Source: an uncultured Mycoplasmatota bacterium
GTDB lineage: Bacteria > Bacillota_I > Bacilli_A > RF39 > UBA660
Length of the DNA: 64,000 nucleotides
Assembly (NCBI GenBank): GCA_900544625.1
Contig: UQVR01000001.1
Span: forward strand, 29,517 to 93,516
Direction of reading: 5' to 3'
Shown here: positions 50,393-51,817 of the stretch, piece by piece
Layout of the letters: the number at the start of each line of letters is the position of its first letter
Position numbering within the stretch: the first letter of the stretch is position 1
The notes under the pieces: model-generated
Seen by the model: only the letters and a program-made list of their open reading frames with translations
What the model was told of the DNA's origin: nothing
The model's database searches: none
Translations under genes and position numbers: made by a program

Positions 50393-51817
50393 ATGGATTA
50401 TAGTGAAGCATTAAAGTTATTTGGATTTACAGGTAATTTTACAAAAGAAGAATTAAAGAAAAGATACTTGGAATTATCTAAAAAATATCATCCAGATTTA
50501 AATGGGGATGAAGAGATGATGAAGAAGATTAATTCCGCATATGAAGTATTAAAAAGTCATAGTGTGTCAAGTGATTTAGTAAAATACTATGATAGTTTAA
50601 AAGAAAGATTGAAATTTTTTGCAAGTAAAACTGTTTATTTGCCTGATACTTTAGAATTTAAATATGCAAAAGAAATTGATGAAGTTATTGAAAAATTTAA
50701 TTTTAATATGTCTAAATCTGCGTTAGATTTATTTTATAATGTTATTTTAGATCATATAAAAGATATATTTGCAAAGTACAAAAAAGAAGTATTAAAAAAT
50801 GTACCCGTATTTTTTGTGAGTAAATTTGAACCAATTAATGATGATTGTTCTTTTGATGATTATGTAAAGAAAGTAAATGAAATTAGAAATAAATATGAAA
50901 AAATTGATAAAGGCTTAAATCAAATTATATTATCTATGTTTAAAGATAAAAATGTTAATAGTAAAATATTAGAAGAGATTTTTGATGTAAAAGAAATAAT
51001 AATTAAAGAAATTATTGATAAAAAAATTACATTAGATGATGGTATATATAAATTACAAGCTGAAATAAAGACAAGAATTTTAAAAATAGAAGCATTAAAT
51101 AATAAAATTTGGAATACTTATAAAGCAATAATGAATAACTTTAATAGAAGAATGAAGGAATTAAATCCTACGGATATAGAAGATATTGATGTTGCTATGA
51201 AAGCGTTTAATAAAGCTATGGCTACATTAAAATCTGTTCAATTAGGTACTGAAGATGAAAAAGTTTTAGGCACTCTTGAAAATTTAACATTTACAAATAG
51301 TGATGAACTTAAAGAAAATGAATATGAATTATATATTACCGCAAATTTTTCTGATGGTGAGGAACCTGAGATTGTTTTGAAAACTGGTGAAAATGGAAAT
51401 CTTGTATCCTTTTTAAAGAAAATTGCTGATATGACAGAAGAAGTTTTTGTGGCTAAAGAAGTGTTTTATAAAAAATATAGTAGTTTTAAAGATGTTTTAA
51501 AGAATTTGGATTTTTTAGGTGATAAAGGTTATGTTCAATATTTAAATACAAAATCTATGGCTACAGCATTATATTATTATGAAAATGCGGGTTGTTATAT
51601 TGTTTTGACAAAAAATAATGAAATAATAATAGTTAGATATAATAAATTTGATTCATTAAGTCCTTTTGTAACGGATATTGCTAGTAGAACGTATAAAGAT
51701 AAGCAAGTACTATACGATAAAATCTATAATAGTTTCTTAAAAAGCAAAAAAGAAATAAAGTTTAAAAATAATGAAAATAATATATTAAAAAGAGAGAAAA
51801 ATAAAGAAAATATCTAG
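50393..51817 (+). CDS. J-domain (DnaJ-like, HPD motif) protein with a roughly 400 aa C-terminal domain of unknown function, ORF D
   Basis: N-terminus [46 protein letters not shown] is a canonical J-domain helix II-HPD-helix III. The ribosome-binding site GGAG lies 6 nt upstream. Confidence 0.8.
   Translation: [474 protein letters not shown]

Follow-up and report, generated by a model that had tools for sequence, protein, structure and literature searches.

The 64,000-nucleotide (nt) stretch of DNA analyzed here, hereafter the window, comes from an uncultured Mycoplasmatota bacterium (contig UQVR01000001.1, positions 29,517 to 93,516) and contains an open reading frame (ORF), ORF D, at 50393..51817 on the + strand (stop codon included). 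ORF D was taken from the list of open reading frames, has about 120 homologs and encodes a 474-amino-acid (aa) class C J-domain protein, the only J-domain protein within the window. Direct reading of the sequence showed a GGAG Shine-Dalgarno sequence (50383..50386, +) 6 nt upstream of its ATG. The J-domain comprises residues 1-55 (50393..50557, +), as delimited by PF00226, an AlphaFold2 (AF2) model and comparison with Tim14, and is made up of helix I (residues 3-10), helix II (18-32) and helix III (40-54). The codons CAT CCA GAT (50489..50497, +) specify H33, P34, and D35, the HPD motif, which was assigned from the family alignment A1, the family representatives and E. coli DnaJ. AGG and CGN codons are absent from ORF D, and the stop codons of the window are used in the ordinary way. 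The RF39 lineage reads UGA as stop (PMC8629427), and on these grounds an alternative genetic code that distorts the translation of ORF D was rejected.

Several lines of evidence confirmed that the N-terminus of ORF D is a true J-domain, far beyond a chance match. The first-pass annotation, made from the letters of the sequence, had recognized an N-terminal J-domain with an HPD motif and read both correctly; the peptide that it singled out is residues 16-54 and lies where it had been placed. The Pfam search that it proposed called a J-domain (PF00226) over residues 11-55 with 43.6 bits (E 3.1e-11), compared to a gathering score of 27.8. Helix II, which precedes the HPD motif and had been described as basic, has a net charge of +3 and an isoelectric point of 9.6, as expected of an Hsp70-facing surface. 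The AF2 model places the HPD motif in the loop that connects helices II (18-32) and III (40-54), and the predicted structure therefore agrees with the J-domain call. H33, P34, and D35 were invariant across the 18 homologs in alignment A1, which range from 36 to 100% identity, and each of the 13 J-bearing proteins examined as representatives of the wider family has the motif at residue 33. These include distant forms of 551-570 aa, which argues that the union of J-domain and body dates far back within a very narrow lineage. The family profile retrieved only J-domains from the PDB sequences, among them those of DNAJA1 (1.2e-8), E. coli DnaJ (5nro_B; 2.3e-5), T antigens, Sis1 and Tim14.

The AF2 model, for which an 18-sequence family alignment was the input, had a mean predicted local distance difference test score (pLDDT) of 83.4. 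The best structural match to the J-domain was Tim14/Pam18 (2GUZ_A), on which the N-terminus of ORF D superposed with a TMt of 0.76 and a root-mean-square deviation (rmsd) of 1.6 Å over 61 columns (Foldseek; probability 1.00, 31% identity). The J-domain of a viral T antigen in BFVD gave a TMt of 0.79 and an rmsd of 1.3 Å. The J-domain of E. coli DnaJ (1XBL/5NRO_B) is 43% identical over residues 9-53 of ORF D with the HPD motifs aligned (BLASTP; the DnaJ sequence was entered by hand). The two proteins have the HPD motif at residues 33-35, a basic helix II and 'AYEVL' in helix III in common, although the loop between the HPD motif and helix III is four residues shorter in ORF D. The PF00226 alignment covers model positions 7-55 of 63 and, because it stops at position 55, helix IV lies outside the profile match and is unconfirmed by it. 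In the AF2 model, a helix at residues 60-74 directly follows helix III and runs on into the helical body; this helix may take the role of helix IV.

The J-domain is followed by a body of three parts. The middle region (residues 60-296; 50570..51280, +) is all-helical in the AF2 model, with pLDDT mostly between 85 and 97, and contains the conserved motifs SKxxYLxDxLExKYA and CSFDxYV (consensus of alignments A1 and A4). A β-rich region (residues 312-423; 51326..51661, +; net charge -6) forms two β-meander sub-domains in both the full and the domain-only AF2 models; modeled alone, it had a pLDDT of 76.9 and a predicted template modeling score of 0.71. The C-terminal tail (residues 437-474; 51701..51814, +) is basic, with a calculated net charge of +6, is set apart by its ratio of nonsynonymous to synonymous substitution rates (dN/dS) as well, and has an LKREK motif that is also present in the products of the neighboring ORFs C and E. 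A helix leads into the tail, and model confidence is low past residue 455. ORF D has no transmembrane-like segment (maximum 19-residue Kyte-Doolittle mean of 0.79), a sign of a soluble, cytoplasmic protein.

The body of ORF D had no relatives of recognized function in the libraries searched. Pfam, NCBIfam, PADLOC, and PHROGs gave no match beyond the J-domain and neither PDB nor BFVD gave a significant structural match to the body. The helical middle region had no significant fold or family match. The best PDB matches to the β-rich region in Foldseek were tandem Tudor-, KOW- and uL2-type barrels, none of which was significant (best E 0.065; template modeling score ≤0.34). With homologs unnamed in every source searched, the earlier statement that the J-domain is fused to a C-terminal part without known function stood. 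The term "C-terminal domain" was refined: helices make up the first section of this part, a β-rich region the second and a basic tail the last, and the body is shared with two neighboring ORFs without a J-domain, ORFs C and E.

ORF D is a soluble class C (type III) J-domain protein, a class that is defined by exclusion from class A and B features (PMC10410713). The J-domain is present, and the glycine/phenylalanine-rich (G/F) region, the zinc finger and the DnaJ-type C-terminal domains (CTDs) that mark classes A and B are absent. Residues 56-125 contain no glycine. The only cysteines in ORF D are residues 152 and 401; there is no CxxC motif and no match to PF00684. Pfam found no DnaJ C-terminal β-sandwich (PF01556) in ORF D at E ≤1, and the DnaJ equivalog TIGR02349 (NCBIfam) reached 34 bits, from the J-domain part alone, vs. 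a cutoff of 377. The CTDs of DnaJ, Sis1, and CbpA were absent from the Foldseek top 50 for both the full model and the β-rich model, so a DnaJ-type CTD in the β-rich region was rejected.

Comparison with characterized systems did not assign ORF D to any of them. In class C proteins such as DjlA, HscB and other bacterial and phage J-domain proteins, as in ORF D, the HPD-containing J-domain is the sole recognizable module and the body presumably gives specificity, but the ORF D body matches none of the class C partner domains (no TerB, HSCB_C, TPR or other Pfam family). DjlA has an N-terminal transmembrane segment, TerB and a C-terminal J-domain; ORF D, in contrast, has its J-domain at the N-terminus, no transmembrane-like segment and no TerB match. 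In HscB, the J-domain is followed by HSCB_C (PF07743), which was not detected in ORF D at E ≤1, and the library scans of the window found no isc or suf genes near ORF D. TopJ (MPN119) of Mycoplasma pneumoniae and MG200 of M. genitalium are, like ORF D, class C proteins of small-genome, Mollicutes-type organisms with an N-terminal J-domain and a lineage-specific body (PMC4923136). The acidic proline-rich region and the EAGR box described for them are both lacking in ORF D, whose seven prolines in 474 aa are scattered and which matched no further Pfam family at E ≤1. Outside the J-domain, ORF D showed no homology to TopJ, although the two sequences were not compared directly. Phage RB43 Rki likewise combines a J-domain with a body of orphan type (PMC3486835), and PHROG J-domain families match residues 1-63 of ORF D; ORF D differs from these phage proteins in being chromosomal and syntenic and in having a body without phage or plasmid relatives. 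Thus, ORF D is not a class A or B protein, DjlA, HscB or TopJ/MG200. Orphan class C proteins are common, and the addition of ORF D to this large group is no surprise.

Relatives of ORF D are few and come from uncultured organisms. When 5.8 billion proteins were searched by word index, 136 relatives were detected; the 120 that were listed have 36-100% identity, nearly all contain PF00226, and every one is an unnamed protein from a metagenome-type source. A body profile (A4), from which the J-domain had been trimmed, matched only 49 proteins at E ≤0.001 when HMMER was used to search 1.84 billion cluster representatives. Of 21 representative matches, 13 contained PF00226 and none contained another Pfam family. 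The architecture of J-domain, helical region, β-rich region and basic tail is thus confined to a few dozen protein clusters and has no name in any of the libraries and sources searched. A search of genome collections found the hosts to be 'Firmicutes bacterium CAG:460' and an uncultured Bacilli metagenome-assembled genome from Hadza gut samples; the host lineage is one of uncultured, AT-rich, small-genome gut Bacilli that are CAG:460-like. The guanine-plus-cytosine (GC) content of the window is 25.6%. The core genes of the chromosome that it carries lie almost exclusively on the + strand and include dnaE, polC, ruvX, mltG, greA, tig, mnmA, addAB-like genes, xseA, proS, relA, dtd, aspS, asnS, and gatAB.

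Two of the genes next to ORF D encode paralogs of its body without a J-domain. ORF C (49070..50380, +; 436 aa) ends 12 nt upstream of the ORF D start and is related to the whole ORF D body, with 24% identity to residues 62-469 (BLASTP E 1e-8) and 381.6 bits with the family profile; a homolog search with ORF C found relatives only at 89-100% identity. ORF E (51845..52537, +; 230 aa) corresponds to residues 237-458 of ORF D (45% identity, E 2e-57; repeats D1-D3 and D7). Upstream of ORF C is ORF B (47618..49057, +), a 479-aa orphan and the first gene of a likely co-directional block B-C-D-E, and in divergent orientation ORF A (44594..47497, -), a 967-aa orphan. Neither ORF A nor ORF B had family matches, and profile alignment with hhalign rejected both as members of the C/D/E family (probability 0.3 for ORF B; 1.8% over 24 columns for ORF A). 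The downstream boundary of the cluster is the T-box leader of aspS (52586..52767, +; Rfam RF00230, 100.8 bits compared to a gathering score of 93). We infer a B-C-D-E operon from the 12-27 nt gaps only, because a scan for sigma-70 promoters was uninformative (92 sites vs. 72 expected at 25.6% GC) and no intrinsic terminators were found.

The block of A, B, C, D and, where present, E lies between gtrA and the aspS T-box leader and is syntenic in two close genomes, L001 and L002, the latter without ORF E. In a relative with 40% identity (L006), the relA-dtd-gtrA…aspS frame is kept and there are no equivalents of ORFs A or B, but positions 7706-11919 encode a 336-aa paralog without a J-domain, a 62-aa ORF and two tandem J-domain proteins of 471 and 499 aa. 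Beyond the J-domain and the first ~170 residues, the second of these has nothing in common with ORF D. A 37%-identity relative and the distant long forms were found in unrelated gene contexts. One distant ORF D homolog has Bro-N and RhuM genes nearby, the Bro-N gene in L004.

The ORF D cluster evolves faster than its surroundings. Computed between the window and L001 and L002, dN/dS was 0.40-0.50 for ORF A, 0.23-0.30 for ORF B, 0.24-0.31 for ORF C, 0.47-0.51 for ORF D and 0.40 for ORF E (L001 only); thus ORFs A-E (44594-52537) ranged from 0.23 to 0.51 vs. 0.02-0.16 for aspS, gtrA, and dtd in the flanks (43558-44400 and 52815-54554). The synonymous rate (dS) of ORFs A, B, C, and E was 0.04-0.16, mostly lower than that of the flanks (0.20-0.39). 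Recombination has made a mosaic of ORF D: between close genomes, identity is only 49-54% over residues 56-143 (dS about 0.6), and over residues 144-236 it reaches 93% with L001 (dS 0.03). The J-domain is the most conserved segment, with a mean pairwise identity of 75.5% compared to 42-52% for the other regions of ORF D, and has a dN/dS of 0.23-0.33. Between close relatives, constraint on ORF D is strongest in the basic tail (dN/dS 0.08-0.11). The J-domain is under real purifying selection and the body evolves quickly. The cluster shows no tRNA gene, no recognizable mobility gene and no shift in composition; given the uniform composition and the lack of a tRNA gene, a foreign genomic island was rejected as its origin.

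Disrupted alleles of ORF D were also detected. The P0058 allele, present on five contigs of up to 275 kb, has lost about residues 279-390 in frame between two 'MATxL' repeats. L011 (1370-1500) has a 40-nt deletion within helix III, and L012 (1286-1500) has a 1-nt deletion just downstream of the J-domain that leaves a 68-aa J-only ORF and a 404-aa body ORF. As a result of these deletions, the J-domain is cut off from the body in L011 and L012. The severed and deleted alleles may be real polymorphism or assembly errors.

We consider it probable, at roughly 60%, that ORF D would function as a class C co-chaperone whose J-domain and HPD motif activate the lineage's DnaK and whose lineage-specific body does the targeting. 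Class C J-domain proteins use variable non-J regions to steer Hsp70 to specific substrates or sites, and many of the bacterial ones, like many of the 2,712 class C architectures counted, are uncharacterized (PMC10410713). The J-domain of ORF D would dock on the organism's DnaK (Hsp70) and the HPD loop would trigger ATP hydrolysis, an activity expected from J-domain biology. Hydrolysis would then clamp DnaK onto whatever the ORF D body holds or neighbors, and the helical region, the β-rich region and the basic tail would serve for targeting or for binding the client. C and E, which lack a J-domain, probably share a binding partner with ORF D or form a complex with it, in which case only one member of the C/D/E set would bring DnaK. 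The data establish the identity of the J-domain, the invariant HPD motif, the fold, the lack of class A and B features, the paralogy of C, D, and E and their narrow distribution; the DnaK interaction, the targeting role of the body and any co-assembly of C, D, and E are inferred. Tim14 with its J-like partner Tim16 offers a parallel to C/D/E, as an idea only, for a J-bearing subunit that works beside J-less relatives; however, Tim14 is a mitochondrial membrane protein, unlike ORF D, and a degenerate J fold persists in Tim16, whereas the J-domain is missing altogether from ORFs C and E, which have only the body in common with ORF D. It is conceivable, though improbable, that C, D, E and their counterparts in genomes such as L006 form a fast-evolving, hetero-oligomeric, DnaK-recruiting module with a shared body fold. 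Gain, loss or severing of the J-domain would then tune the amount of DnaK at one client or site, and the client could be linked to translation, given the position beside aspS, or be a target in genetic conflict.

Several observations weigh against a class C co-chaperone function for ORF D. Helix IV of the J-domain was not reached by the Pfam alignment. Profile scans found no genes for Hsp70/DnaK, GrpE or a canonical DnaJ within the 64-kb window, and no CIRCE element was found there. The presence of a DnaK partner in the genome is assumed because dnaK is, to our knowledge, near-universal in Bacteria. No conserved neighbor indicates a client and, because distant homologs sit in differing contexts, there is no consistently linked partner gene. 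The body is weakly constrained, with dN/dS of 0.31-1.16 by region. Finally, alleles with a severed J-domain or a deleted β-rich region occur naturally in some assemblies; unless these are assembly errors, some strains at least can do without the function of ORF D.

The rapid evolution of ORFs A-E relative to dtd, gtrA, and aspS, the mosaic structure of ORF D and its naturally disrupted alleles would suit a mobile-element or conflict-type protein that hijacks the host DnaK, or a fast-evolving defense or addiction module. Polyomavirus T antigens are examples of J-domain proteins that hijack DnaK. The J-domain of ORF D matched several PHROG families and viral J-domain structures, one distant homolog lies near Bro-N and RhuM genes, and there is a precedent in Rki (ORFan 057w) of phage RB43, which binds DnaK and stabilizes sigma-32 (PMC3486835). 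We regard this explanation as unlikely, however. The PHROG and BFVD matches were limited to the J-domain, and relatives of the ORF D body were absent from IMG/VR viral contigs, where ORF D was searched as a single query, as well as from GenBank phages and PLSDB plasmids. PADLOC gave no match to ORFs A-E at E ≤0.1, the position between gtrA and aspS is a core-chromosome synteny kept in several genomes, including the 40%-identity relative, and the cluster lacks a tRNA gene, a mobility gene and a shift in composition. The same fast divergence, with dN/dS near 1 for residues 144-236, the 40-nt deletion in helix III, the 1-nt frameshift after the J-domain and the in-frame loss of the β-rich region could also mean that ORF D is a decaying or idle lineage-specific gene in which the J fold persists and the Hsp70 work has been lost. 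That ORF D is in decay is quite unlikely, given that the HPD motif and its flanking residues are invariant across deep divergence, that the J-domain and the tail are under purifying selection (0.23-0.33 and 0.08-0.11, respectively) and that most of the ~120 relative clusters are full length; moreover, some of the frameshifts could be assembly errors.

The two other explanations concern the kind of chaperone work that ORF D might do. TopJ is a J-domain protein at the cytoskeletal complex of the attachment organelle, and mutants in MG200, its ortholog, glide poorly (PMC4923136). By analogy, ORF D might help to assemble a lineage-specific cytoplasmic structure with A, B, C, and E as structural partners. 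The hosts are Mollicutes-like, small-genome Bacilli (PMC8629427) and ORF D adjoins large, helical, lineage-specific orphans, but such a role is doubtful: ORF D lacks an acidic proline-rich region, has few prolines and matches no Pfam family of the EAGR type, ORFs A and B are missing beside distant ORF D homologs and hence are not obligate partners, and the window encodes MltG- and MurJ/SpoVB-like functions, which suggest a walled cell. It is very unlikely that ORF D is a general chaperone of the DnaJ/CbpA type (class A or B) that binds unfolded proteins itself. Its J-domain is N-terminal and closest in sequence to those of class A proteins (DNAJA1 and bacterial DnaJ), and its two β-rich sub-domains superficially resemble the two CTDs of DnaJ. 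Nevertheless, the G/F region, zinc finger, PF01556, and PF00684 are all missing, the equivalog score is far below its cutoff and the Foldseek top 50 included no DnaJ, Sis1 or CbpA CTD.

J-domain proteins decide where Hsp70 acts, and an HPD-bearing J-domain on an orphan body would therefore mark a lineage-specific DnaK client or site in genome-reduced, uncultured Bacilli of the human gut. In this sense ORF D would be a small, concrete handle on the cell biology of its host group. The findings add a previously unnamed architecture to the catalog of bacterial class C J-domain proteins and leave current understanding unchallenged. The J-bearing forms, the J-less paralogs and the alleles with a severed J-domain or without the β-rich region make up a natural series for the contribution of the J-domain.

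ORF E is a chimeric gene. Its first 10 codons (ATG plus codons 2-10) and the five bases upstream copy the 5' end of aspS over 35 nt with 91% identity (window 51797-52570 compared with 52810-52844 and with L002 9400-9800) and a TTAT microhomology marks their junction with a diverged copy of ORF D, which starts at codon 244 and has 72-75% nucleotide identity. The insert of ~733 bp is absent in L002. A direct repeat of 41 nt bounds it and includes TAGACA, the -35-like element of the aspS/T-box promoter. This arrangement would fit an old tandem duplication from mid-ORF D to codon 10 of aspS, followed by loss of the first copy of the T-box. The start 'MKEN.Y.DIY' was kept in both E-type representatives of the wider search.

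Minor observations were made on the other genes of the window. ORF A residues 190-213, 'PKYYNDLRGRLIGYIPEFIPDSLK', resemble the motif 'KYYxxLKxKLxxxxSKTxYLPDTLE' of ORFs C and D; the resemblance, which in short form pairs 'PKYYNDLRGRL..IPDSLK' of ORF A with the family's 'KYYxxLKxKL..LPDTLE', is not significant and could arise by chance in a K/Y/L-rich proteome. ORF B residues ~102-120, 'FPLFYVTLISIICKNCLT', are borderline hydrophobic (19-residue Kyte-Doolittle mean of 1.71), a feature found in none of ORFs A, C, D, and E, and ORF B may be membrane-associated. There is no hisS between dtd and aspS, and a 235-aa ORF at 55405-56112 matches the HisRS-type anticodon-binding domain only weakly. Between xseA and proS (36147-37797), a 275-aa Bro-N protein is encoded beside a 269-aa HipA-like kinase-family protein; this pair may represent a small insertion, of accessory or toxin type, into otherwise core sequence.

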